Part shown: positions 33,106 through 54,884 of the stretch, one piece after another | Layout: each line of letters begins with the position of its first letter | How positions within the stretch are numbered: the stretch's first letter is position 1 | Source of the DNA: Candidatus Poribacteria bacterium | GTDB taxonomy: Bacteria; Poribacteria; WGA-4E; WGA-3G | Assembly: GCA_963663765.2 (NCBI GenBank) | Contig: CAXXUA010000008.1 | Location: 1-64,000 of the forward strand | Direction of reading: 5' to 3' | Length of the DNA: 64,000 nt | Program-made: the position numbers and the translations under genes | Notes under the pieces: model-generated | What the model was told of the DNA's origin: nothing | Databases searched by the model: none | What the model saw: the letters and a program-made list of their open reading frames with translations, nothing else

Positions 33106-33109
33106 TGTT

Positions 33110-33325
33110 TTCCACTTTTAATTTGTTCCCTTTGCGTGCTGTCATAACAATAGCATTTACTTTGTATTCTTGCCACCATTTTGTCACGTTATAAGATTCT
33201 CTGGTTCAGCTCGAACGTTGTTGTCTTATCATCCCCGTTTGCCTGGACATCAGTAGAAACATAGTCCGAAAACAAATAGAAAAAAGTAAGACAATAATTA
33301 GGAAAAGACACTTCGTGTTTCGCAT
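33110..33325 (-). pseudogene. Remnant 5' end of the secreted-partner gene plus conserved junction
   Basis: MRNTKCLFLIIVLLFSIC... signal peptide, then frameshifted TTTFEL / EPENLIT* / KWWQEYKVNA. Confidence 0.6.
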
Positions 33326-33330
33326 CAGTT

Positions 33331-34845: not shown

Positions 34846-35339
34846 GTTTTCAATACGAAGTTTCATTGTTTTCTCCTTTTAATTTGTTCCCTCTGCGTGC
34901 TGTCACAATAATAGCATTTGCTTTGTATTCTTGCCACCATTTTGTCACGTTATAGGATTCTCTGGTTCAAGCGTAAGTGTGAATATAGGCAGAGATGCAA
35001 AACCAGTAAAGCGTGTTAATAATAAGAGTTATGTTGGTATAATTTTAACATTTCGGGGTTGATGTGCGTTTTATTGCACGTTTGCACCCCATAGTAACTC
35101 AATGAATAATGTGCAACAGATTCAGGTTCAGTAGCAATCTATTCAACTAACCTAAACGTATCGGATCCCCGCATTTGCCGTTGCTCAGACCCTTCGTCCT
35201 TGGCATTCGGTTTGTGTCCTTGGGATTGAAAACCTTACCATGTCTGAAAATTCCTTATATTTATATCAAACCGAATGTTGTCCTATTTAACTGACATCCC
35301 CTATTATTATATTGGTTTCAAAGAATGTTAACCTAAAAA

Positions 35340-36203
35340 TTATATCGGGATGTGTGAAGTATTTGTAGAAACCTTGATAATAAAAGAAGTCCGTCCAGTT
35401 TCTATTAAAGTTTGCTTGACGTTAGGGAACTGTAGACATCGTAGGGGCAAGGTTTCCTCGCCTATGTGAAGCCTCTGTTCGGGCGGGGAGACCCAGCCCC
35501 TACGCACAGTAACCAAAACTTTACACACCCTTATATCAGTATTACCGTTAGATGTTAGATTGAAACGGCGTTCCGGGATGTCAAACAGGATTTTGGGTTT
35601 GATACATATCAACTCCGATGATGTGCTCCCTGAACGGGGGTCTTCGTAGTTGAAGGTAGCACTTGCTGATAAAATGCCGACTGCCGCATAATCATTAGCA
35701 CGAACAGAGACAATTACACTGCTAATACCTGTTCCAGTCACATTAAGTTTCAATCCTGTTGTAAGCGGATTATTGTTCTCATCCACCTCTCCTGGCACTG
35801 TTTCGGCGTTTGTTTTCGTATCTATTTTTTCCACCGTATATGTATAACCAGAACCGCTGGGATTATCTTTCTTACGAAAATACAAATCATAAGAGGTGCC
35901 CGTATCCGGATCCCCGTTATAATTCATGCACACACCTTTCCACCGAGATACTGAGCTAAGCGTAAACGTAAAAGTCACCGAACCAAATGTAACGTCTTGA
36001 TTTGACGATGTCGTGCCTTTGAGCGTAGCAACAAATGACGCATTCGTTTTATATCCCGGTCGCCATTCTGTTGCCCATTCCGTCGGATTCGCCGGTTCAA
36101 AATCAAGTGTAAACGTTGGTGTCGCTGCAGCAAGATCTATTAGATACACCACACAAAATACAAATAAAAAAAGATATTGAAAAATCCAATATTTCTGTTT
36201 CAT
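35340..36203 (-). pseudogene. Truncated paralogue of the large secreted protein
   Basis: Signal peptide; shares WRP.YKTNASFVATLKGTTS and NDYAAVGILSASATFNYEDP.SGSTS with 30378-32023; homology stops near 35615 and the ORF tail runs through a REP-like element. Confidence 0.7.
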
Positions 36204-36319
36204 GCTAGAACTCCTTAATAAAGTTTTTTCGGAATATATATATATATATGACTCTGATAGAAAAACCTATAAAAGTTTATCTTGAAACCTATTATCTAAA
36301 ATCATTACTTAATTTTTTT

Positions 36320-37324
36320 CTAACGATAAAGTATTGGTAGATCCAGTCCTAGTATTGGTTGTCCTGCTTTTCTAATCTTTTCACGGACATCTTCTCCAAC
36401 TCCATTATTATTTACAACTTTTTTGGTATCCTCCACCCACCAAGCGATCGCACGTATTATATACGATGGTGAAGTTGCTACAGCAGCTGCGTGTGAGCGT
36501 TTAAACGATGCCAATGCTTTCTTGTAGTCACCCATTTGGTAATAACAGAGACCTTCAACACCCAAGTGAAGATAACCAGGGTCCAATTCCTGTGCCTTTT
36601 GGGCATAGCCGAGTGCCTCTTCAGGATGTGTTCCCAAAATACACATTGCGAGTTTATGCAACACCCAAGGATGATTAGAGTTCATTTGATATAAACGACG
36701 TGTCGCCGCAGTTTTTTCTTTACCGTAAAGATCTGTGAGATTTTCTCCTGCAAATACCCATGTGAGTAATGTGTCAAAATCATCTGGATTTTCCTTATAC
36801 GCAAGATCCGCTAATGCGATCATCCTATCGTCAATAGAACCTCCACTTAAATCAAGCACTATCCGCGCCCAAGTTAGAATTCCGAGGTCCCGGAAAAGTT
36901 GAAGATGTTTTTCATTAAACTCATCAATAGTTAACTCACCTGCTCGCCAGCGTTCGTACAAGTCCCTTTCTACTCTTATTATTTTTTTCCATGTTTCAAG
37001 ATGAACAATAGTCGGTTCCCACGGGAACGGTATCCCGCCATCGTGTTCGCGTGCTACTTGTATATATTCTACATCCTTAAGTGACGCAAGGTAATTCAAA
37101 TCACTGAAGTTCTTTGGAGATAACTTTGCTGTTTTTCCGCGTGATTTGGGGTTTGTCTTATTCTGCTTTACACCAGATAACTTAGATGTGCTATCTGGTG
37201 TTGATTGATTCGGTGGTGTAACAGGCGTTTCGGGAACGGTCTTTTGTCCGCATCCTGAACAACCACCGAGTAGGATTACTGCTATTAAAAATAATGTTGC
37301 AAGGTTTTCAATACGAAGTTTCAT
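36320..37324 (-). CDS. TPR-repeat lipoprotein (closest to 32095-33105)
   Basis: MKLRIENLATLFLIAVILLGGCSGCGQK after RBS AGGAG; TPR-like C-terminus. Confidence 0.85.
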   Translation of the reverse strand: MKLRIENLATLFLIAVILLGGCSGCGQKTVPETPVTPPNQSTPDSTSKLSGVKQNKTNPKSRGKTAKLSPKNFSDLNYLASLKDVEYIQVAREHDGGIPFPWEPTIVHLETWKKIIRVERDLYERWRAGELTIDEFNEKHLQLFRDLGILTWARIVLDLSGGSIDDRMIALADLAYKENPDDFDTLLTWVFAGENLTDLYGKEKTAATRRLYQMNSNHPWVLHKLAMCILGTHPEEALGYAQKAQELDPGYLHLGVEGLCYYQMGDYKKALASFKRSHAAAVATSPSYIIRAIAWWVEDTKKVVNNNGVGEDVREKIRKAGQPILGLDLPILYR

Positions 37325-37329
37325 TTGTT

Positions 37330-37556
37330 TTCTCCTTTTAATTTGTACCCTTTGCATGCTGTCGCAATAATAGCATTTGCTTTGTATTCTTGCCACCATT
37401 TTGTCACGTCATAGGATTCTCTGGTTCAAGTGTAAGTGTAAATGTAGAGGCAGAGATGGCAAGACAAGTTAGATGTAACACACAAAATACACATATATTG
37501 AGTAATACAAGAAACAGATGTTTTTCTGAGAAAAAGATAAATTGTTTACGTGGCAT
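37330..37556 (-). pseudogene. Remnant 5' end of the secreted-partner gene plus conserved junction
   Basis: MPRKQFIFFSEKHLFLVLLNICVFCVLHLTCLAISASTFTLTLEPENPMT* (37404-37556), then frameshifted KWWQEYKANA. Confidence 0.65.
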
Positions 37557-37560
37557 TTTT

Positions 37561-37988
37561 CTATTCCTTGTTTTGTTGCATTGAAGGTTGTTTTTTATTG
37601 AGATGAATATAAGGGGAAGTGCGTTCGGGTGGTCCGGTAAACACTTCGGACGCTTGAAAGTAACTCAGCGACTTTTCATATTCTCCCAAACCGTAATAGA
37701 TAACCCCTAATTGATATATGTGGGCATACCAGAAAAACTTTTTATGATATAGTTTTTCAAAATAAGGAATTGCCTCGCGCCGATGCGCGTCCGATGAATC
37801 AGGCTCTGTTGAAATAAACTTCGCCAATTTATATAATGCTTTTATTGAGTCAGGATACATTTTGACAAGTCTACGTAAAACTGTTTCGGTTTCCTCACGT
37901 TGCCCAAGTCTTTCAAGCCTATTGGAATAGATTAACCCGGTATAAAGGTCATCGGGGTTTTCCTTATACGCTTGGTAAAACAGATAAT
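37561..37988 (-). pseudogene. C-terminal half of a TPR lipoprotein, 5' end removed at an IS boundary
   Basis: QAYKENPDD...EAIPYFEK...YFQASEV parallels 39419-40351; the ORF-track start lies in the IS terminal repeat. Confidence 0.7.
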
Positions 37989-39410
37989 CTGACATTTATC
38001 ACAAGGTTGTTTATACTGCTAACAATCAATGTATAGAAGGGATAGTGTTATGAAAATGCGATTTGATTTTATTGATTTTTCTTGACTTTTAGCACATGAG
38101 ATATCATCTCTAAAGTTTTTTCAAACACTTCTCTACTCTAATTTTTGAAAAATGACATCGTAACTTGAAGAAACCTTACTTTTACTTTCAACCGGTCATC
38201 TATTTGGACTTTACAATTTGAATCAAATAGCAGACGCATTGTCTAAACCGAAAGCGAAACTCTATCGGTGTCTAAAAAGTTTCAGCCTTTATCAGTGGCG
38301 GTGTTTATTAGTGCGTATCGGGTGTTCCATTGCAATCCAAGAGATACGTGATACCGAATCTAAAAGTGCTTCTACACAATCCCGTCGTCGCATTACAATC
38401 AGTGTAGATAATACAAATGACCAGAGATATGGCAAACTGTTGTCATACTGCTTCAGTTGGTGGTCAAAAAAAGACAATAAATCGGTTCAAGGTCGGAATA
38501 TATTAGGCATCACCATCAAGAATGGGGATACGATCATTCCTCTCAACCTCCGTATTGTTAGCAAACAAGGGCGTGGCAACACTGATAAACCGAGTCTTTT
38601 TGTAGCTATACTCAAAGAAGTCCTAAGTTTCTTTGATGATGCGGGTATTGATATAAGAAAATATCCGCATCACTGTTGATTCGTGGTATGTCGGTAAAAA
38701 ACTTACCGACATTCTGTCTGAAATGGGATTTGATAGCATACTCATTCACGGGAAAAACAACTATGTGATGGACATTGATAACAAGTCCAAAAAACTTTCG
38801 GAACACAAAAAGGAAGTAGAACTGAACACGGAAAAATGGGGGTGTGATAAACCTCATTATCGCACCCAAGCGACAAGTCGGACATTCGGCTCTCTTGTGC
38901 TTCTCTTTTTTTTAGATATGAAGTCATAGTGAGTAAAACATAAGGATATGGTGAAATGGGGAAAGAAAGAGAGATAATTTGTGTCCTTTTCTTTCTGCTT
39001 TAGATTTCCATTTACTTTGAATTCTTAACTCTTACTCGCTACAAGTTCTATGGGAAAAATCCGAACGATGCTGGTATTCGGTAAATCCTTACGGGCGTGT
39101 GAGATACTCAGGATTTGGTCTCAACACTACGGTATAGAACAATTTTGGCGACACCTAAAAACAGATTTGAAATTATCAAAAATAGGATTACGGAAACAGC
39201 AAGGCGCGTATGCCAGTTTAGGTATAAAAGTGTTGAGCTATCTCCTATTACAAAATATGAGTCGTTTGCAACACAAAACATTTCATCAAATACAACTTGA
39301 ACTTACAGGAAAAAGAAATATGCTGTTAGAACTAAAAAAGCATTTTCATGAATAAATACCAACTAAACAATGATAAACATTGAAATCTCAAGAACTTTGA
39401 GAAATATCAG
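37989..39410 (+). mobile_element. Degenerate DDE insertion sequence (IS701/IS4-like), frameshifted, with a ~130-bp internal insertion
   Basis: Imperfect TIR CTGACATTTATCACAAG / CTTTGAGAAATATCAG. Fragments: ISVDNT (38218-38679), TVDSWY after a frameshift, and IEQFWRHLK (39050-39355). The insert at ~38921-39052 splits FLDM/GKIRT. Confidence 0.7.
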
Positions 39411-39418
39411 TATGTTTA

Positions 39419-40351
39419 TTAATCATTGAATTGATTCTCCTTTTCATTATAGGAAAGATGACGTTTAACAGCAGAAATAAACTCTGATGAAACGTCACCA
39501 GGACCACCTGTTATCACTTCAACAGCTTGAAAGTACTTTAGTGCTTTGTTGTATTTTCTTAACCCGAAATAGGCTTCTCCTAATGCAAGGATGGGGCCAT
39601 ACCAATCAGTGTTCAAACGATATGCCTTTTCCAGATAAGGAATGGCTTCATGAGGTACAGGATGATTATCTACAATAAACTGTCCTAAGGTATATAATGC
39701 TAATATTGAATCTGGACGCAATCTAACAGCCCTTCGGAGTCCTGCTTCTGCTTCACCAGGTTTGTCATGGGCATGTAGTTTACTCCAATATATAAGTATG
39801 TAAAAATTATTAGGATTTTCTATGTATGCTTGTTCAACCAACAAATTTGCCTGCTTACTCATTCCTCCCATTTCATACAGAAATGTGATGGCAGCGAGTG
39901 TATCTAATCCTTTTGTAACAATTGATGCGACTTCTTGATCCGCATCTTCTTCAGGAAGAAATGCACCGTTGAACTTATTTAATTTCTTCTTTTTTTCTTT
40001 TGGGTATTGAATATACCAGAAACCGTTTTCATCTATCTTAAAGTGATCCGGATTATTCTTGACGTAGACTGGTATAGCGAACGGATTTTTAGGGGTTCTG
40101 TAGTGACCATAAGGTCTGTGTGGTGGAATTTTAGGAAAAACAATAGACTTGAAAAACGTATCGCTTTCCAGGGCTTCGGGTACTTTGGTGTATGCAGTGC
40201 TATGGTGATCATGTTTGGAATTTACCACGTCATTTGGTAATTGTTTATCTGGTGCGGTTTTTTTCTCCTTTTGCTCACACCCCGAACAACCACTGAGTAG
40301 GATTACTGCTATCATTAGTAATGTTGCAAGGTTTTCAATACGAAGTTTCAT
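39419..40351 (-). CDS. TPR-repeat lipoprotein
   Basis: MKLRIENLATLLMIAVILLSGCSGCEQK; TPR helices (EAIPYLEKAYRLN, KALKYFQAV). Confidence 0.85.
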   Translation of the reverse strand: MKLRIENLATLLMIAVILLSGCSGCEQKEKKTAPDKQLPNDVVNSKHDHHSTAYTKVPEALESDTFFKSIVFPKIPPHRPYGHYRTPKNPFAIPVYVKNNPDHFKIDENGFWYIQYPKEKKKKLNKFNGAFLPEEDADQEVASIVTKGLDTLAAITFLYEMGGMSKQANLLVEQAYIENPNNFYILIYWSKLHAHDKPGEAEAGLRRAVRLRPDSILALYTLGQFIVDNHPVPHEAIPYLEKAYRLNTDWYGPILALGEAYFGLRKYNKALKYFQAVEVITGGPGDVSSEFISAVKRHLSYNEKENQFND

Positions 40352-42490: not shown

Positions 42491-44110
42491 CTATTGATCG
42501 GTGAATTGCATCTCCGCACCCACAGTACAAGGAATAGACAAAATAAAAGCAGTTCCTGTAGATAGGTTTTTATCAACTTCTATGTTTCCTCCGTGGAGTC
42601 CCAGTATCTTTTGACTGATGTAAAGTCCAAGTCCTGTTCCTTTTTGTTTTGTTGTATAGAATGCGTCAAAAAGATGCGGAATTTCATTAGGTAAAATTCC
42701 AGGACCCGTGTCTTGTATCCGAATGTTTACGGTTTTCCCTTCGTTCTCTGTGTATGTCTTAATAGTTAACGTTCCACCTGATTCCATTGCTTCAATCGCG
42801 TTAGAGAATAGGTTGAAAATAACTTGCGTAATCCCATCTTGATTGATATTCACAGATGGACATTCAGCGAAATCACGAACCACTTCTATATGGTTACGAT
42901 CCAATTCGGGTTGATATGTTGCAAGGCAGTTATCAAGCAGTTGGTCAATTTTGCAGAGTTCTGTGTCCGAGATTGCAGGTTTACCGAACGCTAGCAACTG
43001 TTCTATAGAACGATTAAGCCGATCTACCTCTTTGATAATAATTTGTGTATATTCGTCAATTTCGCTGCGTTCATCTTTCGGTAACGGTGCAAAACGATCA
43101 TCGGGTTCACTCAGCAGCTGCGTTGCTAACCGAATACTACCGAGTGGATTTCGCACTTCATGCGCGATTGTCGTCACCAACTTACCGAGCGCAGCAAGTC
43201 GTTCCGAATACACTAACGCCTCAATCGTCTGTTTGATCTTTACACGTTGTGCGATAATAGATGCAATGATTGTTAATACTTGTTCATCTTCAGCGGCAGA
43301 GAGTTCATCCTTGGCTTTGTCAATCGTCAAAGTGCCGATAACACGTTCCTCTACAAAAACAGGTAGCACCCAAAATCCAATAGTATCCTTTGATTCAACC
43401 ATCTCAGGAGGAAACAACTTGATATCGGGACGAGGGATGCGATACTGCGGTACACCCACTGCTTCACCCTCTGCTAACACCTGCTTCTCAATTTCCTCTA
43501 TCTGATCGTCTGTTCCACGTTTCTGCTCTGCTGCTGTTAACCCTAAATTCACCTCAACGGATGTCACAAGTTCATCGTCTTCATAGATTTTCAACGCACC
43601 GCGATAGATACCGAGACGTTCAGAGAGTATCTCAATTATACGGTGAAAAAGTTCCTCCAATTCAAGTGCAGCATTCGCCGCTTGGCTTACCTCAAAAACG
43701 ATGGATAGGTCTCGCACCCGTTTCTCTAATGTTGTCTTTTCGCTACTGACCCTATCAATCTCTTTTACACGATATAATCGTTGAATTCTTAGTTGACGTA
43801 TTGTTCTAACAAAAACAAATGCTACAATTGGATATAGAAACGCTACTGCAAAACTTGCTATCTGGAGTGGATTTTGTAATGCATATACCCAATTGGCAAC
43901 CGTTGTCAATCCGAGCAGGATATTTTGATTACGCAAATCTCCATGAATCGCTGCTAACAACATCACACCGTAATAAAGGTGTGAAACGGTAAAATAATAC
44001 TGAACGGCACCGGTTGCATATATAACAATATTGACAGCGATCACACCGAGTGCTAATAATAGTGTTCTCATGAGACGTTTGCGTCCTGCTGGGGTTATGG
44101 TTGTTCCCAC
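42491..44110 (-). CDS. Membrane sensor histidine kinase with GAF domain
   Basis: N-terminal TMs, NifA-like GAF, H-box AHEVRNPL, N-box NAIEA and G-boxes DTGPG/GTGLGL. Confidence 0.9.
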   Translation of the reverse strand: MGTTITPAGRKRLMRTLLLALGVIAVNIVIYATGAVQYYFTVSHLYYGVMLLAAIHGDLRNQNILLGLTTVANWVYALQNPLQIASFAVAFLYPIVAFVFVRTIRQLRIQRLYRVKEIDRVSSEKTTLEKRVRDLSIVFEVSQAANAALELEELFHRIIEILSERLGIYRGALKIYEDDELVTSVEVNLGLTAAEQKRGTDDQIEEIEKQVLAEGEAVGVPQYRIPRPDIKLFPPEMVESKDTIGFWVLPVFVEERVIGTLTIDKAKDELSAAEDEQVLTIIASIIAQRVKIKQTIEALVYSERLAALGKLVTTIAHEVRNPLGSIRLATQLLSEPDDRFAPLPKDERSEIDEYTQIIIKEVDRLNRSIEQLLAFGKPAISDTELCKIDQLLDNCLATYQPELDRNHIEVVRDFAECPSVNINQDGITQVIFNLFSNAIEAMESGGTLTIKTYTENEGKTVNIRIQDTGPGILPNEIPHLFDAFYTTKQKGTGLGLYISQKILGLHGGNIEVDKNLSTGTAFILSIPCTVGAEMQFTDQ

Positions 44111-44127
44111 TAATGGATTTAACGTCG

Positions 44128-44730
44128 TTACAACTTTAAGAAATTGTCCAACATTTTTAGTCCTACACGTCCGCTCTTTTCTAAATGAAACTGTGTTGCG
44201 ATGAGATTGTTATGTGCTATTGCACTGCAGAATCCAAGACCGTAAGTCGTTTTACCAATGATAGTTACAGTATTATTCGGAACAGGAAAATAGGAGTTGA
44301 CGAAATAAAAATGAGCAGGATCGGGAACACCTTCAAATATCGGATGCGGACGGACTTGACACACTTCATTCCATCCAATCTGTGGCACTTTGAGTTGTTT
44401 ATTCGCGGGATATTTTTTCACTCTACCGGGAAGCAAACCGAGACACTCAGTATCCTCCTCCTCGCTGTGTTCAAAGAGGATTTGGATGCCGATGCAAATA
44501 CCTAACATTGGTTTGTCAGATTTGTAATATTTGACAAGAACTTCGTCAAGTGAAAAGTCATGCAGGTTTCCCATAGTCGCTTTTGCTGCACCGACCCCAG
44601 GAAAGATAACTCGGTCTGCAGTAAGAATGGTTTCGGCATCATCAGTGATTTGGTTTCTATAACCGAGGTGGTCCAAAGCACGGGCAACACTTGTTAGATT
44701 TCCTGCTTTGTAGTCTATAATTGCAATCAT
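44128..44730 (-). CDS. hisH: Imidazole glycerol phosphate synthase glutaminase subunit
   Basis: IIDYKAGNL.SV, FPGVG, GICIG.Q, VPQIGWN and QFHLEKSG. Confidence 0.93.
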   Translation of the reverse strand: MIAIIDYKAGNLTSVARALDHLGYRNQITDDAETILTADRVIFPGVGAAKATMGNLHDFSLDEVLVKYYKSDKPMLGICIGIQILFEHSEEEDTECLGLLPGRVKKYPANKQLKVPQIGWNEVCQVRPHPIFEGVPDPAHFYFVNSYFPVPNNTVTIIGKTTYGLGFCSAIAHNNLIATQFHLEKSGRVGLKMLDNFLKL

Positions 44731-44782
44731 TTATATTTGTCCAATACACATATTTCTTCAATCTATATAAGTATACAAGGAT

Positions 44783-45427
44783 TTAACCTCTCTTTTTCCC
44801 CTTCTTATTCATGATAATATGCATCCACAATCCCCAACCGAAACCTGCTACCAACCAGAATGGTAACCCAAAAACAAACAACATCTTCAAGTTCCACTCT
44901 TCTCCATTCATGACATTCCACACCTCCGGTATTACTACCATAAACAACCACATAAATCCCCCCCAAAAGAAAGTGCCTATTAATTTCCAATTTACATCAT
45001 TCGCTTGAAGTAAAGGCCGTTCAAGTACTTTTGCCAATCTTGCTTTTTCTTTCACTATCCATCTATCGCGGAAGAACCGAATAGGGAAATACCAAAGTGG
45101 AAATGTAATGATTAAGATTGCGTAACTACATAAACTCCATAGGCACGGAATTATTTGTTCGCAATTTGGACAAACAAATCCATACCAATGTCCTAATGCA
45201 TGTGCTTTCATCCATATACGTCCATCATTTATCGTTTCGCAGTGGGGACACGGAACATAACTACGTTCCATAAGAGGGTCACAGCTCTCTTTGTCTATCA
45301 ACGTTACCTTTGGCAACCGTACCCCCAAAATCAGTTCGTGGATTATCACAAGCGGGTTTAATATCCAGATAAAGACCAGAGGGTGAGGTAGCGCATGTAT
45401 TTTGTATCTGTTTTTGTCATATTGCAT
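44783..45427 (-). CDS. Membrane protein with Zn-ribbon (CPHC...CPNC), hypothetical
   Basis: Probable true start MQYDKNRYK at 45427; the ORF track fuses it to the upstream HNH fragment. Confidence 0.6.
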   Translation of the reverse strand: MQYDKNRYKIHALPHPLVFIWILNPLVIIHELILGVRLPKVTLIDKESCDPLMERSYVPCPHCETINDGRIWMKAHALGHWYGFVCPNCEQIIPCLWSLCSYAILIITFPLWYFPIRFFRDRWIVKEKARLAKVLERPLLQANDVNWKLIGTFFWGGFMWLFMVVIPEVWNVMNGEEWNLKMLFVFGLPFWLVAGFGWGLWMHIIMNKKGKKRG

Positions 45428-45504
45428 TGGTTTATTTTCGTCAATGTTTGTGTTCCAAATAATGTGGAGTTTATTATCTTGATTCGCATTATATCCATTT
45501 ATTT

Positions 45505-46591
45505 TGTCCAAAACTCCCTGTTCTTTCAAACGTGCAATAAGTTGTGCCTGCGTGTTTGTACCTTTCGTCGAATTGCACGCGCCGCAAAGTAGTTGTAAAT
45601 TATCTTCGTGGTCAGTGCCGCCTTGGGAATGTGGCACGATGTGGTCAACCGTCATATTCCTAAACGGGAATTGAGTTCGACATCCATTGCATAGTCCTTC
45701 CTGTTAACCGAACAAGGTGTGTTTGTGGGTGCGGTAATTAGGGAGCTGTTCACTCCGTTTCGGTATGTCGGTGCGATGGATAACATCTCCGAACATGCCA
45801 ACTTCTTCTCCAGACTGACGCGCACAAGTTCAATTGCTTTCGGTGTTATGTCTATACCGATCCAGTGACGCTGTAAACGTTCAGCAGCGACACAGGTAGT
45901 TGCACACCTACAGAACAGGTCTAACACAAAATCACCTTTGTTACTACTCGCTTTGATGATACGTTCTAACAACGCTATAGGTTTCTGTGTAGGATAACCT
46001 GTGGATTCTTTTGATCGCGAATTGAGTGCGCCTATTTCTGTCCAATTATCCAATTCGGGACGTCCCATAGATTCATCCGTGTAACGTTATAATATCGTGT
46101 CCTCTACCGAAACGGGATTTGGTATTATTTTTAGCACCCGTTGCTGAATTCCATACTACCTCATTTTTAAAGTTGTTCTTACTAAACACCGTATCCATCA
46201 GCATTTTGAGATAGTGACTTGCAGTTGGATCACAGTGCAAGTATATACTCCCTGTGTTATTCAACACACGCTTCATCTCTAACAACCGCACTGCCATCAT
46301 GATTAGGTAAGACTTCATACCTTTACCGTGTGTCAACTCCGCTGCGTGGATCGCTATGTAGAGTGCTGGTTCACGGTCTGTTATCTCACCGTGCCATGCG
46401 TTGTCTACATCAGAAAGCGTCCATGTGTCTTTGAACGCAGCACCAGCTGCCTCGCTGCCAATCGGCGCAGCATAGTTGCGGTTAGAGTTAAACGGCGGGT
46501 CAAGATAAATTAGATCAATAGACTCGCTGTCTATTCCGCGTAGGATAGGTAAGTTGTCGTGTGAAAATACGGCTCGGTTTTGGACGTTCAT
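45505..46591 (-). pseudogene. DNA methyltransferase-HNH endonuclease fusion, fragmented
   Basis: IDLIYLDPPFNS (46073-46591); YPTQKP and a degenerate SAM motif LFCRCATT (45652-46068); frameshift, then FG*QEGLCNGC...VDHIVP...GG.....NLQLLC..CN..KG. Confidence 0.8.
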
Positions 46592-47121
46592 TTGCTAACA
46601 CGATGAAAAGTTAATTCGTTTGTATATATCGGGGAAGATTTATATATGCACATAGCTGCTTTGTAAAGCGGTTCCAGATATAATGTCCTCAAAGGTTTAT
46701 CTATAGTCATAAAATAACGCCAATCAGTAAAAGCATCTTGATACTCTTTCAATATAACCTCTACACTATCTAAATCTTTACGAACTATAATATCCGATTT
46801 TATTTCGTCAAATAGAGATTCTATTTCCGATTTAGATTTAGAAGTTAGTGTATTGAAGAGATTGTAAAGGTTATGATGTTTCTCTATTTTTTTATTTTCT
46901 AGCTGAATTTTATATTTTAATAACAATTCTATACAATGACAAATAATCATTAATGCAGATAAGGTCATTCCAATAAAAAATGGGTTAATGTCTCCATCTT
47001 CAGATTGACTTGATTCATTAATAACTACGACTGATTGCAACATACCAGGGACAGTATGTCGTAAAGCATTTTCTTGAATAACAATCTTTTCCTGTTTGTG
47101 ATTATTACTCATCATACACAT
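46588..47121 (-). CDS. HEPN-like domain protein
   Basis: CIELLLKY, HNL..LF and F.DWRY pattern; ATGA-coupled to the MTase. Confidence 0.6.
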   Translation of the reverse strand: MCMMSNNHKQEKIVIQENALRHTVPGMLQSVVVINESSQSEDGDINPFFIGMTLSALMIICHCIELLLKYKIQLENKKIEKHHNLYNLFNTLTSKSKSEIESLFDEIKSDIIVRKDLDSVEVILKEYQDAFTDWRYFMTIDKPLRTLYLEPLYKAAMCIYKSSPIYTNELTFHRVSK

Positions 47122-47190
47122 CCTTTGTTAGCGCGGGTTTTGCGTCTCCCTGCTGGTGTAGAATACGGTGTGGTTTTGGATGTTTATACA

Positions 47191-47466
47191 CTAATCTATA
47201 TCTATAAGATGCAACCGAAATACGACAAAATTACTATGGTTCATTGGCTTATATTTCGGTTTATCCGTAAGTTCAAGGGAATTATTAAGATCTTTAGCAA
47301 CATCATCAGCTAGACATATTATATTAGTACATCTCTTAGATACTTGAAAACATAAACGATCAACTGCTTTTGGACCAACTTCATCCAATTCTATTCCTTC
47401 ATACTCAGAATCAATAAGTACCTCATTCACAGTCTTAACTACATGTTTGTATTCTAATTCAACCAT
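47191..47466 (-). CDS. Hypothetical protein (cassette-like)
   Basis: RBS GAGGA; low GC. Confidence 0.55.
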   Translation of the reverse strand: MVELEYKHVVKTVNEVLIDSEYEGIELDEVGPKAVDRLCFQVSKRCTNIICLADDVAKDLNNSLELTDKPKYKPMNHSNFVVFRLHLIDID

Positions 47467-47586
47467 TTTAATATTTCCTCTGTTAATATAGGTTTTGCAT
47501 CACCTCGCGAGGTTGTCATCTGAAATACAGTATGGTTTCAGACATTCAATGATTGCCACCCAAATTAAAGAGCATTGTCTACGAAT

Positions 47587-47880
47587 CTAAAATTCATCAA
47601 CATTTAATGAATTTTCTTCAATAATTTGAATATTATCCTTGGATGGACTCCAAGTAGGACAATTATTATGAAGTGCCTTCCACATAAGAATGCTATCATT
47701 TTCTGCTTGATTTTCATCTTCGTAAGGTCCAATAAAATATACTGATTGACGTTCTGGTAGTATTATTGCAGACCGCAACTCAATTACCCATTTCTGTCGA
47801 CTTACGGGATGTTCTTTTACCTCAACACTTCTGCATGTGTTCAGATTAACCCAAGGACCTTTATTCGTTTTAACAAACAT
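47587..47880 (-). CDS. Hypothetical protein (cassette-like)
   Basis: RBS AAAGGA; low GC. Confidence 0.6.
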   Translation of the reverse strand: MFVKTNKGPWVNLNTCRSVEVKEHPVSRQKWVIELRSAIILPERQSVYFIGPYEDENQAENDSILMWKALHNNCPTWSPSKDNIQIIEENSLNVDEF

Positions 47881-47939
47881 AGCATTTCTTCCTTTGTTAG
47901 TTGGCGTGAGGTATTACATCTCCGTGCGGTTTTGAACGT

Positions 47940-48218
47940 TTATTCAATTGTCCCATCTGATTTAGCCGCTACATGTTGCCCAATTAATTCTAAACTCTTA
48001 GAATATAATATATTCCCGATTTGGTTTAATATTCCACATTGCAAATCCTCAAAAAAATACTTTCTTTTTTCGTCATCTGACTCAAGCAATGATATTTCTG
48101 TAATATCATTGCTTGTTTTTTGAGCATCATAGTGATTTGGTTTATGACTATCATTATAAGATATAACCAACTTATCATCTTTTATTTCTATTGAAAACCA
48201 ACATTTATACATATCCAT
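47940..48218 (-). CDS. Hypothetical protein (cassette-like)
   Basis: RBS AAAGGAG; its stop overlaps a decayed MTase start copy. Confidence 0.6.
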   Translation of the reverse strand: MDMYKCWFSIEIKDDKLVISYNDSHKPNHYDAQKTSNDITEISLLESDDEKRKYFFEDLQCGILNQIGNILYSKSLELIGQHVAAKSDGTIE

Positions 48219-48885
48219 GAAGTCTCCTTTTTTATGAGAGGTATAACATTTTGCTTAAGGATATCGTGTAAAAATACGGTACTGTTTTGTTACGAATATC
48301 GGTATTATTGGATGTTTATGTAAGTAGATAACATACCAAATACATCTGATCTTAGGCGTTGACTATTATATTTGATTGACTCTTTAAAAGCAGTATATAC
48401 ATTGTCTTGATGAATGTTCGTGATCAGATTCCAGATTTCACTGCGAATCTGATCACCCCACTCACATTTCTGTCTACCCTTAAAAGTTATAGGTGTTTTA
48501 TTTGTTACATAACTTAATGCCTCATGATATTTTTCTAATGCTTTAGTGGTTGACTCGCTAAGTAATTTCAGTATTCTATGTTTGAAATTCTTAAACTTCC
48601 AACCCCCCTGCCCCCCTTATCAAGGGAGAGGAACTTTTGGATCTATTCCATCCGTTCTCTACATGATAAATGTTTAGCGAGTGAACCATTTAGAATGGAC
48701 ATAGTCTTCCTTATGAGACAAGCCTTCATTAACAAGTTTTCTTACGTTCCTCATCGCTCATTTCAAGAAGTGCTTTAAAACCTAGTTTATTCATAGCTTT
48801 TCTCCATTGTTGATAGCATGGAGTTTAACGTTTCCTTGCAGGTTAGTAACTAAAGAATAGTTTTTGTTCATTCACAAATACCAAA

Positions 48886-49365
48886 TTAACTTGATAACGT
48901 TTGAAGTTGTTTACGTAAGTTTGCCATTTCAATCGCAGTTACCGCTGCCTCAGCACCTTTATTGCCAGCTTTTGTGCCTGCGCGTTCAATCGCTTGTTCA
49001 ATTGTATCTGTGGTAATAATACCGTTGATAATTGGAAGGTCGGTCTGTAATGAAACCTGTGCGATACCTTTGGTACTTTCACCCGCAACATAATCAAAGT
49101 GTGGCGTAGCACCTCGAATCACAGCACCAATACAAATCAGTGCATCGTAGCGTCCGCTTTCGGCAAGTTGTTTAGCAATACCTGGCGTCTCAAAAGCACC
49201 AGGAGTCCACACTACATCAACATCACCTAAGTTACCACCGTGGCGTTTTATAGCATCAAGTGCACCATCTAATAATTTTGATGTTATAAAACTGTTAAAC
49301 CTGCTGACAACAATACCGAATTTAAGCCCGTTGCTATTCAGGTTGCCCTCATATATGTTTGGCAT
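48886..49365 (-). CDS. ribH: 6,7-dimethyl-8-ribityllumazine synthase
   Basis: [25 protein letters not shown] and [14 protein letters not shown]. Confidence 0.96.
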
Positions 49366-49405
49366 ATTTATTATATATTCCTATAAGGTGATTTGTTCTT
49401 GGATT

Positions 49406-50623
49406 TTAGAGAAGATGTCCCAGTTTCGTGCGCTTTGTCTGTAGATAACGCTTATTATGCGGATTTGGTGTTGTCTGCAAACCAATTTGTTCAACGATCT
49501 CCAACCCATATCCCGATAGACCTTTGACTTTATGCGGGTTGTTTGTCATAAGTCGCATTTTTTTAACACCTAAATCTACCAAAATCTGAGCACCGATGCC
49601 ATAATCGCGTAGGTCTGGTGGATACCCAAGACGTTCATTTGCTTCAACTGTATCCAAACCTTCATTATCCTGAAGTTGGTATGCGCGAATTTTGTCTTTA
49701 AGACCCATACCTCTACCTTCCTGACGCATATAAAGCAACACGCCGCGTCCCTCTTTTTCTATGTTTTGTAGTGCAATTTGCAGCTGCTCACCACAATCAC
49801 AGCGAAGAGAGCCGAAAACATCACCGGTTAAACATTGTGAGTGTACCCTCACCAATATAGGACTACCATCACCAATCTGTCCTTTCGTTAATGCAATATG
49901 TGTATCAGTTGGTTCACCAGGTGTCGGTTCGCCATCAACGTTACTCTCATAAGCATGTAGTTTGAATTCTCCGTGATCAGACGGTATTTCCGCAGTTGAA
50001 ACATGCTTAATCAACGTTTCAGTGCTGCGACGATAAGCGATCAGGTCAGAAATCGTAATGATTTTCAGATCGTGTTGCTGTGCAAATTCTAACAGTTCTG
50101 GTACACGCGCCATTGTGCCATCATCGTTAAGCACTTCACACAAAACTCCTGCAGGATACAAGCCTGCGAGACGTGCCAAATCAACCGTAGCTTCGGTATG
50201 TCCAGCACGTCTCAGCACGCCACCAGGTTTTGCATCTAATGGGAAAATATGTCCGGGTCTTACGAAATCGGAAGGAACAGCGTCTTCATCAACAAATTTA
50301 CGAATGGTATATGCTCGTTCTTGAGCAGAAATCCCTGTGGTGACCTCTTTAGCGTCAATCGTTACGGTAAATGCAGTCTGCATCTGTGCGGTGTTTTCCA
50401 TCACCATCGGGTTTAGTTGCAGTTCAGCGAGACGTTCCGAGCAGGTTGGAAGGCAGATCAACCCGCGTCCGTGTTTTGCCATAAAGTTGATTGATTCTGC
50501 TGTCACCTTTTCTGCTGCCATGATGAGATCACCTTCATTCTCACGATCAGGTTCATCAACTACGATGATCATCTCACCCGCTTTAATTGCAGAAAGGGCT
50601 TCAGGTATGGTACTAAATTCCAT
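49406..50623 (-). CDS. ribBA: Bifunctional DHBP synthase / GTP cyclohydrolase II
   Basis: DRENEGD, RAGHTEA and [20 protein letters not shown]. Confidence 0.96.
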
Positions 50624-50653
50624 GATATATTATTTTCTACTGTTTTTTATTCC

Positions 50654-51298
50654 TTATCCATATCCATGTTTTTGTAAAAACTCTAAGTCTATTGTCTTTG
50701 ATGATGGCATCTGATTTTGCATCAATGTTTCAATGTAACGTGCCATCACATCCACTTCTATGTTCACAATATCACCATTTCGTCTTCTACCAAGGGTTGT
50801 GACTTCCAATGTATGTGGAATTAAAGCTACCTCAAAACTATTGTTAATCACATTCGCGATAGTTAAACTCACACCATCAACAGCAATAGAACCTTTATAA
50901 GCAATATAGGGTTTCACCTTGGAACTGACTGTGACCTGCATAATTACAGATGAGCCTTCGTTTTCCCAACTGGTGATGGTAGCAATTTCGTCTACATGAC
51001 CTAATACGATGTGTCCCCCAAACCGATCCCCTAATTGAAGGGAACGTTCCAGATTGACTTGCATACCAACTTTACATGAACGAAAGGTTGTCCTACGGCA
51101 TGTTTCTTCGCTAATATCTGCAACAAATCCACTATCCTCAAGCGATCGGACGGTAAGGCACGGACCATCAACTGCAATGCTGTCACCTATTTTGGCATCT
51201 TCAAGCACTGTTCCTGCGTTTATCTTGACAGTCACACCACTGGATTTCGGATGGACTTCGGTTATCGTTCCAACTTCTTCAATGATACCGGTAAACAT
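50654..51298 (-). CDS. ribE: Riboflavin synthase
   Basis: Canonical MFTGIIEE start at 51298; GGHIVLGHVD. Confidence 0.95.
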   Translation of the reverse strand: MFTGIIEEVGTITEVHPKSSGVTVKINAGTVLEDAKIGDSIAVDGPCLTVRSLEDSGFVADISEETCRRTTFRSCKVGMQVNLERSLQLGDRFGGHIVLGHVDEIATITSWENEGSSVIMQVTVSSKVKPYIAYKGSIAVDGVSLTIANVINNSFEVALIPHTLEVTTLGRRRNGDIVNIEVDVMARYIETLMQNQMPSSKTIDLEFLQKHGYG

Positions 51299-51302
51299 GC
51301 TA

Positions 51303-52400
51303 TTAGAAATACCCCTCAATCAATAGGTCATAACCGATTTCGGTGATAGTCCAACGTTTCAATTCTGGTGCATCAACCAAACGCGTTATTCCTACACCAT
51401 TAAAGACACCCGGAGCGTCGTTTCCACCGATAAATTTAGGTGCTACAAAGCACATGACTTTATCAACAAGTCCGGATGCCAACGCACTCGTATTAACTTT
51501 ACCACCACCTTCTATCATTACACTTGTTAAACCACGTGCTCCTAAGTTCTCCATCAGCGTTTTAAAACAGACACGTCCATCGTTTGCAGGTATTACAACA
51601 ACTTCAGCACCCGCTTTCTCCAAACCAACTATATTCTCAGCATGTGCTTGCGGTGTAACAGCAATAATGACCCCTGCATTGCTCTCTGAGTTGAATACCT
51701 TTGCCGATGTAGGCGTTCTTCCATTAGAATCTAACACAATGCGCGTTGCGTCTTTTCCCTGTTTCTGAGTCAGTCTCGTGGTTAAAGCGGGATTATCGCT
51801 TGTAATCGTCCCGACTCCAACAAGAATTGCGTCTACCTCATCACGTAGCGCATGCACCTTTTCTCGTGATTCTGACGATGTTATCCATTGCGATTCACCT
51901 GTTGACGTTGCGATCTTCCCATCCAGACTCATCGCCATTTTCAATATAATAAACGGGTAACCCGTTTTCACATGTTTAATGTATACCTCATTCAGTTTTT
52001 CCGCTGCTTCTGTAAACAATCCTACGTTAACTTTTATGCCAGCATCCGCTAACTGCTGGAAACCTTTTCCTGCCACCTTCGGATTTGGGTCTAAATGTGC
52101 AGCGTAAACATGTGCAATACCCGCTGTTATGATTGCATCTGTGCAAGGTGGTGTAAGTCCCCAATGACAACAAGGCTCAAGGTTCACATAAAGCGTCGCA
52201 CCTTCTGCTTTTTCCCCCGCATCACGCAAACCGTGTATTTCTGCATGGGGTGCACCCGCTTTCTGATGATACCCTTCACCGACAACTACCCCTGCGTTAA
52301 CAATCACCGCACCAACAAGTGGATTCGGACTTGTCCGTCCCTTCCCCTGTTCTGCCAATGCTAATGCGCGGTTCATAAACGCTTCATGCGTCTTGTTCAT
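51303..52400 (-). CDS. ribD: Riboflavin biosynthesis deaminase/reductase
   Basis: PNPLVGAV, HAE, LEPCCH..TPPC and SLDGKIA. Confidence 0.96.
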   Translation of the reverse strand: MNKTHEAFMNRALALAEQGKGRTSPNPLVGAVIVNAGVVVGEGYHQKAGAPHAEIHGLRDAGEKAEGATLYVNLEPCCHWGLTPPCTDAIITAGIAHVYAAHLDPNPKVAGKGFQQLADAGIKVNVGLFTEAAEKLNEVYIKHVKTGYPFIILKMAMSLDGKIATSTGESQWITSSESREKVHALRDEVDAILVGVGTITSDNPALTTRLTQKQGKDATRIVLDSNGRTPTSAKVFNSESNAGVIIAVTPQAHAENIVGLEKAGAEVVVIPANDGRVCFKTLMENLGARGLTSVMIEGGGKVNTSALASGLVDKVMCFVAPKFIGGNDAPGVFNGVGITRLVDAPELKRWTITEIGYDLLIEGYF

Positions 52401-52446
52401 CGCAATGTATCACCCACAGTGCTTTATATATAAGTATACCACAAAT

Positions 52447-52959
52447 TCAGATTAAATCAAAATCATTTTTGGGAACATCCATTGCCTCTAAGCACTCAAG
52501 TACCTCTGTCTGATCAACCAAATCAAACTGATGCGTCCCTATATACATATACCGAATTGTCCCAAATTTGTCTATGATAAAGGTTGCAGGTCTTGCTATG
52601 TTGTAAGCCTCAAAACTGAGCCAGTGATATACACCATAACTCTTGATGACACTTCTATCTTTGTCTACCAAAAGTGGAAAAGTGATACCGTTTCGTTCAG
52701 CAAACCCACGCAGTTCTCGAGGCCATTGTCCAGCAATACCAATCGGAGTTCCATGATACTTGGCAAAATCATCAGAGTGAGCTTGCACTGCAGCCAACTG
52801 GCGGCGACTATTCGGTCACCATGTTCCCCTAAAAAAGGTCAAAACTACGTGCTGTTCATCACGAAAATTCTCCAACGACACAACCTGACGTCGATGTGAC
52901 GGAAGTGAAAATTCCGGTGCTATATCACCTATGTTGAGTATTTTGTTCTGACGTGGCAT
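52447..52959 (-). CDS. AhpC/TSA peroxiredoxin-like protein with in-frame UGA (probable selenocysteine, U48)
   Basis: MPRQNKILNIGDIAPEFSLP...FFRGTW-TGA-PNSRRQL...ARPATFIID; the TGA at 52816-52818 falls at the catalytic Cys position. Confidence 0.8.
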
Positions 52960-53011
52960 AGCATCATTTTCGCAGATAATTCATCATAAGTCAAGAGGGT
53001 AGGAAAAGATG

Positions 53012-53314
53012 GGGTGTGTAAAGTTTTTGCACAAGTCTTATTGTAGGTTGAAAAGATCGCAGTATTATTTAGTTTTCAATATTTTTGATAATATTTTGCT
53101 ATGTCGTTAATTTTATGTGATACCATCTTGTATGTGTCTTTAGTCCCGTATAAAGATTATAGTGGATTTTAGAATTATTTTTACACTTTCAGGTGTAGGA
53201 GGGAACTCCGATTCACGACTATCAAGGCGTTCAGTCGCGATTCGGAGATCGCTCCTACAGAAGAAGTGTAAACTTAATTGTATATTTCACTTTAAGAGGA
53301 AATGCGTAAGTCCT
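53012..53314. mobile_element. Cluster of partial MITEs/REPINs
   Basis: GGGTGTGTAAAG end, a family B fragment, an element matching the reverse of ~60907-61045, and a family A end. Confidence 0.6.
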
Positions 53315-53373
53315 GCATTTGAGAGTAAAACACTCAAAATCTCAAAGTTTTATTGTAATCTTCCTTGTTTTCA

Positions 53374-54884
53374 GTGATAGCACCCACTACCTAAAGGTAG
53401 GGCTTCGGTTTCATAGCAACTGCGGTTTTCTCATAAAGTCCACCGTCTGACTGTCGCTCCACCATCAGGCAGCTATCCCTGCCTGAAGTATATTTATAGC
53501 AGCGTTTATGTCTCGGTCGTGGTGTGAACCACATTCAGAGCATGTCCACTGCCTATCAGAGAGTGTTAGATTGTTATTGTGGAAACCACAATCCGAACAT
53601 GGCTTTGTCGTAGCTGTCCATTGACTGACTTGAAGGAACTGACGCCTATGTTTTTGACACTTATATTTCAATATCTCAACAAACTGGTAGAAAGCAAGGT
53701 CGGAAACCTTGCGCCCCCAAAGCCGTTTCATACCGTCAAGGTTCAAGGTTTCAAGGACTATCGTATCAAACCTTTCACACAGATAAGTGGCAAGTTTCCA
53801 ATGCCAATCTTTGCGTTGGTTAGCCGCTTTGCGATACAACCTTGCGAGTTGTCGGATACCACGGCACCATCTGTTAGAACCTTTAACCTTGCGAGAAAGC
53901 GATTTGTTGAGACTACGGAGTTGGTTCAAGGATTGTTTCAAAGGTTGCGGGTGTTGGATTTTCTCACCCGTGTTAAGTGTCAAAAAAGCATCTTTCATAC
54001 CGAAGTCTGCCCCAACGTTCTGACCTGTTGTCGGCATCGGTCTAAAATCTGTGTAGGTTGTTATGATGTAAAGCCAATAATCCCCGCAGGCATCACGTTT
54101 GAGTGTGATACGTGCAATACGTCCGTGAAACTCACGGTGTTTATGGAACGTATAAGGCACTTTATCAAATTGCCATTTACGCGTCTTGGAATTCCATTTA
54201 CGAAATGTGATGGTGATACGATTGTTTTTCAGATGCCACCCCGCGTGTCCAGGAAAAGTAATAGATTTAAACTTATGTCTCGGTTTGATATGCGGTCTAC
54301 CGCCAAGTTTCTTGAAAAAACGTTGATACGCTGCGTCAATACGTTTCAATTCTTCTTGAATCGCTTGACTCGGCAACGTTTTCCAATGGGGATGCGTGGT
54401 TGCCTTGAGTTCTGTAAGGTGAGCAGACATAGCATTATAGTTCGCATACGGCAAACCTTCTTTATAACGTTGACGCTGCCACTTATGGAAATACGCATGC
54501 ACTTGCCACATATCGTCAAGCAGATTGCCAAGACGTATCGTATTAGACTGATTAGATATTTTATATTTATAGGTTTTCATGGTATATCAAGTATCAAGTC
54601 TTTAACCCCCGTAAAGTGGGTAGGCAGACACATTGTCAAGCGACAATGCTTTACATGTCTGCCAACTTGATATTGTTAAGTATACTACAGCGTATCTCAT
54701 AAATGTGATTTTGTCCAAATTCACTGGATCGTGTGTTTGACATCTCGGGGTTAGAAACCCCTCCTACCATTTATGAGATAGGTTGTATATTTTTCGCAAA
54801 ATGTCAAATTTGTTTTCAACCATAAACCCAACGTCCACCTACATCCCGCAAGCTAAAGCATGGGGTCTTGGCGGGAAGATTGAT
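53374..54884 (-). mobile_element. IS200/IS605-type element carrying only tnpB
   Basis: Left-end hairpin (CCCCATGCTTTAGCTTGCGGG, ~54845-54867) and right-end hairpin (CCCTACCTTTAGGTAGTGGG) ending in TCAC; no tnpA. Exact ends approximate. Confidence 0.7.
53465..54580 (-). CDS. tnpB: RNA-guided endonuclease TnpB
   Basis: KTYKYKI N-terminus; RuvC D (GADFG), E (VLETL) and D (DRDINAA); Zn finger CSDC..CSEC. Confidence 0.92.
   Translation of the reverse strand: MKTYKYKISNQSNTIRLGNLLDDMWQVHAYFHKWQRQRYKEGLPYANYNAMSAHLTELKATTHPHWKTLPSQAIQEELKRIDAAYQRFFKKLGGRPHIKPRHKFKSITFPGHAGWHLKNNRITITFRKWNSKTRKWQFDKVPYTFHKHREFHGRIARITLKRDACGDYWLYIITTYTDFRPMPTTGQNVGADFGMKDAFLTLNTGEKIQHPQPLKQSLNQLRSLNKSLSRKVKGSNRWCRGIRQLARLYRKAANQRKDWHWKLATYLCERFDTIVLETLNLDGMKRLWGRKVSDLAFYQFVEILKYKCQKHRRQFLQVSQWTATTKPCSDCGFHNNNLTLSDRQWTCSECGSHHDRDINAAINILQAGIAA

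Follow-up and report, generated by a model that had tools for sequence, protein, structure and literature searches.

The stretch analysed here is a window of 64,000 nucleotides (nt) from a Candidatus Poribacteria bacterium (assembly GCA_963663765.2, contig CAXXUA010000008.1, positions 1 to 64,000, forward strand); "the window" below always means this whole stretch. Between ribH and a hisH-like gene it holds an interval of 4.1 kb, in which all features lie on the minus strand, and which contains a gene for a DNA methyltransferase (MTase) joined to an HNH nuclease, MTase-HNH, preceded by a row of small open reading frames (ORFs), called cassettes hereafter, and their spacers s1 to s5 (Table 1). 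Starting from ribH, the order is s5, a decayed cassette, s4, an ORF of 92 amino acids (aa), s3, the 97-aa ORF, s2, the 91-aa ORF, s1, a weakly HEPN-like ORF, MTase-HNH and an ORF with two CxxC pairs. The module that recurs in this row consists of a leader, m2, which carries a Shine-Dalgarno sequence (SD), then one ORF, then m1, the name used here for a spacer copy of the beginning of the MTase coding sequence, 21 to ~41 nt long (its source being the first ~45 nt).

Table 1. Features of the ribH-hisH interval, in order from ribH (positions in the window)
Feature	Position	Strand	Basis and remarks
ribH (lumazine synthase)	48886..49365	-	Pfam DMRL_synthase E=8.3e-59; native, upstream island boundary
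s5, probable oldest spacer	48801..48878	-	m1-like stretch, then m2-like leader and SD
Fifth cassette (pseudogene)	48305..48794	-	ORF list and removal of the insert in silico
MITE-like insertion within cassette 5	48547..48688		142 nt
Spacer s4	48219..48319	-	m1 in two pieces, then m2 and SD
92-aa cassette ORF	47940..48218	-	Family-less; homologue known
Spacer s3	47881..47943	-	m1 nt 1-21, then m2 and SD
97-aa cassette ORF	47587..47880	-	Small family, conserved N-terminal domain of ~78 aa
Spacer s2	47467..47549	-	m1 at its longest, about nt 1-41; m2 and SD follow
91-aa cassette ORF	47191..47466	-	Family-less; homologues at 70-73%
Spacer s1	47122..47187	-	m1 about nt 1-32, then m2 and SD
Weakly HEPN-like cassette ORF, 174-177 aa	46588..47121	-	Pfam HEPN below cut-off
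MTase-HNH, pseudogene (N6/N4 DNA methylase and HNH nuclease)	45509..46591	-	Domains detected by Pfam in three pieces of ORF
Downstream ORF (two CxxC pairs, hydrophobic tail)	44783..45430	-	No Pfam match except HNH
hisH-like glutamine amidotransferase	44128..44730	-	Pfam GATase E=3.2e-17; native, downstream island boundary

The m1 copies of s1 to s4 are found where the preliminary description of the window had put them, at 47187-47156, 47549-47510, 47943-47923 and 48289-48262 of the minus strand, and the MTase-like ORF itself begins at 46591 with the sequence given there. Copy 4 comprises an extra piece, corresponding to the first 12 nt of m1, at 48319-48308, separated from the rest by an 18-nt insertion. 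Every gap between the ORFs holds an m1 copy, in the same order and orientation. Two overlaps that had been pointed out in a preliminary description, made from the letters of the window, were seen as described: the MTase ATG is overlapped by the stop of the HEPN-like ORF as ATGA, and the stop TAA of the 92-aa ORF (47940) is contained in m1 copy 3 as ATAA. The stops of the other two ORFs are 5 nt and 43 nt ahead of their m1, and s2 is preceded by 37 unique nt that reach back to the stop of the 97-aa ORF. The likely start of the HEPN-like ORF is the ATG at 47112, 8 nt past AAGGA.

That degenerate copies of the MTase start lie in the four upstream spacers was stated in the preliminary description, and it was borne out. 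An nhmmer profile of m1 was trained on the four spacer copies alone, with the MTase excluded. Its best non-training match was the MTase start (46592-46553), at E=2.5e-6, the next such match having E=1.3 (128 kb searched), and a profile of the whole spacer matched the MTase start at E=3.1e-5. When s1 to s4 were each aligned locally with the MTase start, the observed score was attained by 0 of 2000 shuffles in each case. A repeat search found m1 pairs independently (D1, 33 nt at 76%, for s1; D3, 26 nt at 85%, for s4; D6, 23 nt at 83%, for s3). It also returned an abundance of chance pairs in the region (D4-D20, 17-25 nt, 73-85% identity), and the count of the single motif was modestly enriched, with 3 matches against 0.56 expected and 3/100 shuffles reaching 3. 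These last two results are what could be said for chance similarity in AT-rich intergenic DNA, to which we leave practically no probability: it is refuted by the match of the held-out MTase start, by the shuffles, and by the presence of copies in each gap in constant order and orientation. We conclude that the m1 repeats are real and derived from the MTase coding start.

The copying went from the gene to the spacers, because the m1 bases encode the N-terminus MNVQNR..F..DNL, which is conserved in MTase-HNH homologues of many phyla. A GTA codon is common to the MTase, s1, s2 and s4, where the nearest relatives carry ATC or ATA; the copies were therefore made from this lineage's own MTase allele. 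By manual count, identity to the MTase is ~84% for s1, ~74% for s2, ~81% for s3 and ~83% for s4. Internal deletions of 7 and 20 nt set s1 and s3 apart from s2 and s4 in the profile alignment, and the sequence to either side of them can be aligned; the unequal m1 spans therefore need not mean separate insertion points. The spacer alignment would fit one common junction near nt 41-43. Of the earlier proposal that genes were inserted serially ~20-40 bp inside the MTase start, the serial route stands as the simplest one to this anatomy, and the need for differing insertion points falls.

The second shared motif, m2, reads GATGYAAWACC, 5-10 nt, TAACAAAGGA, and ends, as had been described, in the ribosome binding site of the next gene, an SD 6-11 nt ahead of the next ATG. 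The repeat search gave one m2 pair (D2, 29 nt at 72%). The motif had been reported for each spacer. In leave-one-out m2 profiles, s1, s2 and s3 were each the top non-training match of the window (E=0.12, 0.049 and 0.011), and m2 of s4 was not recovered among the top three matches of the window. Two candidate sources of m2 were rejected: a second decayed copy of the MTase start (shuffle p=0.19, 0.048, 0.040 and 0.88, with inconsistent alignments), and an internal stretch of the MTase, the m2 profile having no match to the MTase and the 25-nt pair D4 being at chance level.

We then list what the spacers lack. No attC-like fold was found in eight DNA folds (four spacers, both strands), with z between -0.39 and +0.35 and 64 to 126 of 200 shuffles folding as well or better. 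The repeat search showed neither terminal inverted repeats nor target duplications of the spacers, and Rfam gave no match at E<=1 across 44000-53500. Promoter-like sites numbered 19 against 19.6 expected, none of them in s1-s4 on the gene strand; terminator-like sites numbered 4 against 3.1 expected, none of them within a spacer. No tRNA that could serve as a target was found in the window, and no further spacer copy was detected elsewhere in the 64 kb with the whole-spacer, m1 and m2 profiles. Among the 54 further ORFs of the 64 kb, Pfam revealed no integrase, no tyrosine or serine recombinase and no other site-specific recombinase. The expectation of an array with neither attC palindromes nor a local integrase is thereby upheld. 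The only transposase-type ORFs of the 64 kb are a TnpB-like one (53465-54580) and one of IS630 type (29140-30266). The TnpB-like ORF, on the minus strand and 4 kb upstream of the rib genes, has OrfB_IS605 and Cas12f1-like TNB domains, and no TnpA was seen.

As anticipated, the four cassette ORFs are short, AT-rich, co-oriented and mutually unrelated. There was no blastp match among them at E<2, which rules out paralogy among the cassettes, and they are unrelated to the rest of the window. Their GC content is 0.28-0.34, and 0.20-0.23 at third codon positions (GC3), against 0.42-0.45 and GC3 of 0.31-0.37 for ribH, ribBA, hisH and a kinase gene; the MTase pieces have a GC3 of 0.43-0.48. Host, MTase and cassettes are thus three compositional classes. 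An open frame of at least 91 codons arose in only 75 of 2000 segment shuffles, and one of 177 codons in 0 of 2000; the ORFs remain open despite the drift of m1 to ~74-84% identity. The four ORFs are real, and foreign in composition to both host and MTase. In the interior of the 92-aa ORF (48083-48115) lies a perfect inverted repeat of 14 bp around a 5-nt loop; read on the opposite (+) strand, it resembles a terminator.

Homologues were found for all four. Those of the HEPN-like ORF have 82-85% identity over the full length, those of the 91-aa ORF 70% (91 aa) and 73% (74 aa), and the 92-aa ORF has one homologue, 77% identical over 65% of the query and with the same C-terminus. For the 97-aa ORF, 12 library proteins matched at E<=1e-3, the best at 88% identity, an N-terminal domain of ~78 aa being common to them. 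The C-termini of the homologues coincide with those of the window ORFs, two of which end here on T(G/A)A of m1; the same terminal residue in homologues on other contigs is expected if ORF and m1 travel together. The contigs concerned measure 2.9-9.5 kb for the HEPN-like ORF, 10 kb, 77 kb and 6.6 Mb for the 91-aa ORF, 1.45 Mb for the 97-aa ORF and 0.6 kb for the 92-aa ORF. The 6.6-Mb contig holds a member of the 91-aa family and is listed for that family only, an indirect hint that the cassettes do not always co-occur.

As to function, Pfam, PADLOC, NCBIfam and PHROG assigned no family to the four ORFs except for a weak HEPN match. This match, of the 46588-47121 ORF to Pfam HEPN, has E=4e-4 and 20.9 bits against a cut-off of 22 bits, and the protein sequence has no R-x4-6-H motif; the ORF, HEPN-like in the preliminary description, is weakly so. 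At rank 3 of an Atlas search it met a cluster named HEPN with a score of 0.93, which we take as a lead only, and its AlphaFold2 (AF2) model is too poor for a structure search (predicted local distance difference test, pLDDT, 39.7). The AF2 model of the 97-aa ORF is better (pLDDT 78.3, a beta-sheet and a helix), and gave no match in the PDB at E<=0.001, the best having 0.23. Atlas gave no usable match for the 91-aa ORF. Phages yielded no match for the 97-aa and HEPN-like ORFs, the two ORFs searched, and plasmids none for the array DNA. The cassettes had been suspected of stockpiling defence genes. None of the four matched PADLOC at E<=0.05, and the only matches to restriction-modification models were those of the MTase and HNH pieces; a defence role of the cassettes is unsupported.

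The state of MTase-HNH was examined by tblastn with intact homologues of 455-476 aa, and its lesions were mapped. About 90-115 residues are lost and the frame changes near 46086; a second frame change lies near 45800; an in-frame stop interrupts the linker; and the motif DPFCG, which binds S-adenosylmethionine, is altered to DLFCR. The terminal stop is lost as well, and the HNH remnant reads in frame into the downstream ORF. Both domains are present by Pfam, with no single intact ORF of about 450-480 aa, and from these lesions the gene is a pseudogene. The preliminary description had each insertion regenerate a fresh 5' end of the MTase; nothing functional is regenerated in the present gene. 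In the downstream reading frame 44783-45655, only the first 49 residues match homologues. The CxxC ORF (44783-45430) may belong to the island or be a native gene. A second N6/N4 DNA methylase fragment is present at 32-535 (+), its 5' end being beyond the window.

At the other end of the interval, s5 begins with ATGAAC, 14 nt past the ribH stop. It scored E=0.033 with the whole-spacer profile, was the best non-training match of the m2 profile (E=0.18), and had p~0.09 for its m1 part alone; it is probably a further spacer copy. The sequence behind it, cassette 5, contains no ORF of at least 40 aa with a start codon in the ORF list. Inside lies an insertion resembling a miniature inverted-repeat transposable element (MITE), with 15-nt terminal inverted repeats (14/15 match) and a 5-nt flanking direct repeat, CTAAA; no other copy of its arms was found in the window. 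Removal in silico of the 142-nt insert and one copy of the target site gave a 101-codon stop-free stretch across the junction. The ATG behind the SD sits in a different frame from this stretch, so that a frameshift is implied. Cassette 5 is a pseudogene. The most decayed spacer copy and cassette are those closest to ribH, which fits an ordering with the oldest farthest from the MTase.

Relatives of the locus were collected with the N-terminal MTase piece as query: 538 of 556 matched stretches were confirmed, and the best 80 were kept (L001-L080). All 80 are records of metagenome-assembled genomes, from many phyla, with 60-87% protein identity; Poribacteria are nearest (up to 87%), with bins of Dehalococcoidia, Binatia, Gemmatimonadota type and others next at 60-75%. 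The sponge-symbiont setting is taken from these relatives, and the gene is prone to transfer. Some genomes have two or three copies, up to three in one chromosome. In these 80 loci, the m1 and whole-spacer profiles matched only the MTase starts themselves, the m2 profile had 0 matches, and the four cassette ORFs had 0 matches. No locus was syntenic with the window, and close relatives of this organism are therefore outside the sample. In a gapped scan, 2 of 79 testable loci were slightly above shuffles, with gappy alignments, a test of low power (the window scores 38, against a shuffle maximum of 35). One further match, in L053 (7765-7799, inverted, ~200 nt upstream of MTase-HNH), was rejected as a spacer copy; a second methylase-like gene, divergently oriented, appears to begin there.

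The multiple copies in some genomes bear on one explanation, in which the array is what remains of tandem units, each a small ORF plus MTase-HNH, all but the last deleted from about nt 45 to the unit end. Deletions do occur here, the surviving gene having lost about 100 codons. Four or five independent deletions with the same two end points would be required, though. No MTase or HNH trace follows m1 in any spacer, m2 resembles neither the MTase start (p=0.04-0.88) nor, by its profile, the MTase body, and no tandem MTase-HNH copies were seen in the 80 loci. We hold this origin to be very unlikely.

The upstream neighbours of the relatives are of interest for a second alternative. From the 153 upstream ORFs extracted, 31 were tested, and no conserved upstream partner emerged among them; they were heterogeneous (IS1595 transposase twice, PaREP1 twice, tetratricopeptide repeat, TPR, three times, others once each). 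MTase-HNH stands directly behind an IS1595-family transposase in L014 and L078, behind a PaREP1 (HEPN-related) ORF in L062 and L066, and behind a Mu-type portal gene in L018. Such variation by locus, together with the very wide spread of MTase-HNH and its multiple copies, would suit a process in which the gene is the homology anchor for DNA of strains with other upstream neighbours. In each round, a homologous crossover would occur within the MTase and an illegitimate joint would form just inside the resident start, so that the donor's upstream gene is stacked. This process is known as homology-facilitated illegitimate recombination. The ATGA and ATAA overlaps of two ORFs with m1, as in natively coupled upstream genes, also speak for it. 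Random neighbours, however, would share neither the same m2 leader nor the extreme AT-richness of the four cassettes, and m2 is in none of the 80 loci. Moreover, the joints fall within a tight zone of 20-45 nt, where the data fit a single common junction, and the m1 copies bear this lineage's own codon, not foreign alleles. This origin appears improbable to us.

The array was compared with known systems that accumulate genes at a repeated site. The attC sites of integrons recur as stretches of 60-130 nt, imperfect palindromes that fold as single strands. Arrays also exist without a nearby integrase, a cluster of attC sites lacking the integron-integrase being termed CALIN (PMC4889954). Like integron cassettes, those of the window are co-oriented, promoterless, unrelated single ORFs separated by a recurring site. 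Unlike them, the spacers here have no imperfect-palindrome fold on either strand, the repeat stems from the coding start of a neighbouring gene, and it lies at the promoter-distal end of the array beside a gene, not beside intI/attI, which adjoin the array in complete integrons only.

In att-site accretion, as outlined in PMC5704250, elements are stacked at the end of a target gene with direct repeats copying that end between them, the gene end is restored at each event, and the integrase-less members (cis-mobilizable elements, CIMEs) rely on an integrase in trans. The degenerate m1 copies (about 74-84%) in each gap recall the accretion of CIMEs beside integrative and conjugative elements (ICEs) or integrative and mobilizable elements (IMEs), as outlined there. 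The differences are that each element here is a single ORF of 0.3-0.5 kb, that the elements share an m2 leader terminating in an SD, that a mobile MTase gene serves as target, with its 5' end, and that no integrase, ICE, IME or conjugation relic is present in the 64 kb. For T4-type phages, PeSL cassettes are presented as short repeated intergenic cassettes around small ORFan genes, whose recombination shuffles modules and yields mini-circles without a dedicated integrase (PMC2839356). Short repeated intergenic units flank small ORFs here as well. In contrast to PeSLs as presented there, with an early promoter and a terminator stem-loop, the spacers show neither, and the setting is a bacterial chromosome between ribH and hisH, not a phage. 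Finally, in the orphan toxin/immunity arrays of contact-dependent inhibition (CDI) and Rhs systems, displaced modules keep a short conserved piece of the main gene that marks the recombination joint. Our case is the mirror image: the 5' end is kept, the modules are upstream, and they are whole independent genes, not alternative domains. The array lacks the structures that define integrons and PeSLs and, in the 64 kb, the integrase or ICE/IME relics of accretion arrays.

The ribH-hisH interval is best explained as a fossil insertion hot-spot. We propose, with about even confidence, that it holds a lineage-specific pile of single-gene modules without integrase, now decaying, to which recombination at the MTase start added each member. 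An MTase-HNH gene that had spread horizontally would have arrived 14 nt behind ribH, and five single-gene modules would then have stacked before it, one by one. Recombination would join the m1 of a module to the resident MTase start; if the module is a circle, one crossover would do, and a replacement of equivalent outcome would fit as well. After each event the MTase would have an intact start, and a truncated m1 would lie before the newcomer. The modules may have been drawn from one AT-rich gene pool foreign to host and MTase. Devoid of promoter and terminator of their own, they would be read from upstream transcription, each by its own SD. The enzyme would act in trans: perhaps a site-specific recombinase whose gene lies elsewhere, perhaps the general machinery of homologous recombination working on the short repeat. 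The system is now in decay, MTase-HNH and the oldest cassette being dead and four ORFs kept open. In this proposal it is the serial order, the circular intermediates and the enzyme that we infer, serial addition at the MTase start being the simplest route to the observed anatomy. The anatomy itself, the derivation of m1 from this MTase lineage, the reality and foreign character of the ORFs, and the lack of hairpins and of a local recombinase are shown by the data.

Several points weigh against this proposal. No recombinase, circle or polymorphism was observed in the window data, and 20-45 nt of homology is short for RecA-type recombination. The array was seen once only: such an array is present in 0 of the 80 related MTase-HNH loci. 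An ungapped scan of these loci gave isolated matches at the threshold of 23/36, upstream in L043 and L057 and downstream in L039, L043 and L062. The identity of m1 gives no clean age gradient across s1-s4. A change from ATG to ATA is common to three m1 copies, and other G to A changes are common to pairs, which may mean that spacers were copied from one another and not afresh from the MTase, or that AT-biased drift acted in parallel. Lastly, the short contigs that carry cassette homologues may be fragments of one genome, which weakens the argument from non-co-occurrence.

Some of these points would rather suit a static block, an operon that was acquired or that evolved as a whole, with its five small genes and the MTase, and with no ongoing cassette traffic. 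The ~70-95-nt spacer (m1 plus m2) would then have been copied between genes, as an element serving translation initiation or regulation or as a small non-autonomous repeat. The spacers are indeed most aptly taken as a single composite unit that later suffered deletions, derived bases are common to their copies, each of them supplies an SD at a suitable distance, the array is old and decaying, and no dynamic version was seen in any relative examined. Yet a piece of MTase coding sequence between unrelated genes would stay unexplained without recombination of the kind we propose. The spacers have no terminal inverted repeats, target duplications or fold, and no copy of them lies elsewhere in the 64 kb. 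The ORF homologues are on different contigs, including the 6.6-Mb one listed for one of the four families. We consider a static block unlikely.

Other repeats of the window were recorded. A run of TPR-repeat genes at 32095-40351 is probably the "lipoprotein array" to which the preliminary description attributed the same logic. That array consists of paralogues (families D12, D15 and D16), and the parallel does not hold. Two members of the run are 74-78% identical in DNA, and a 5' region of 123 nt is present in three copies, one of which (34866-34988) has no long ORF behind it. Two tandem arrays, 4805-6509 and 21559-22578, have periods of 156 nt and 120 nt and copies 95-100% alike; both contain a GC-rich palindrome of 44 nt and an AT-rich box of 35 nt (D2-D5), and single copies lie near 55839, 55970 and 60449. 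About 34 tandem copies of a 21-nt unit occupy 31099-31817, overlapping predicted ORFs (D1). Paired ~43-nt repeats with a GTCCCGTAGGGAC palindrome, in both orientations (D10, D20), are found at 6491-6585, 21501-21663, 28609-28802, 34469-34631 and 60654-60815.

A bolder reading of the stack at the MTase start is that the first ~45 nt of the mobile MTase-HNH gene are an attachment site for hairpin-less mini-cassettes (m2 leader, one ORF, m1) of a class not described before, which circulate among sponge symbionts and are captured integrase-free. We regard it as a long shot. What sets off capture could be the neighbouring MTase-HNH protein, through its nuclease domain, or else an unlinked recombinase. 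If true, a selfish methyltransferase would here be the base of a platform that captures genes much as integrons do. If the modules are or were mobile, the capture unit would be very small: a single ORF, a leader common to all units and a gene start borrowed as the joint would suffice, with no need of attC hairpins or of an integrase linked to it. Its seat would be a gene that ranks among those most widely exchanged by sponge symbionts, and it would offer a new route for the pile-up of accessory genes in the genomes of uncultured symbionts. Even as a fossil only, the locus would clearly document the building of an operon from unrelated genes by repeated recombination at one gene start.

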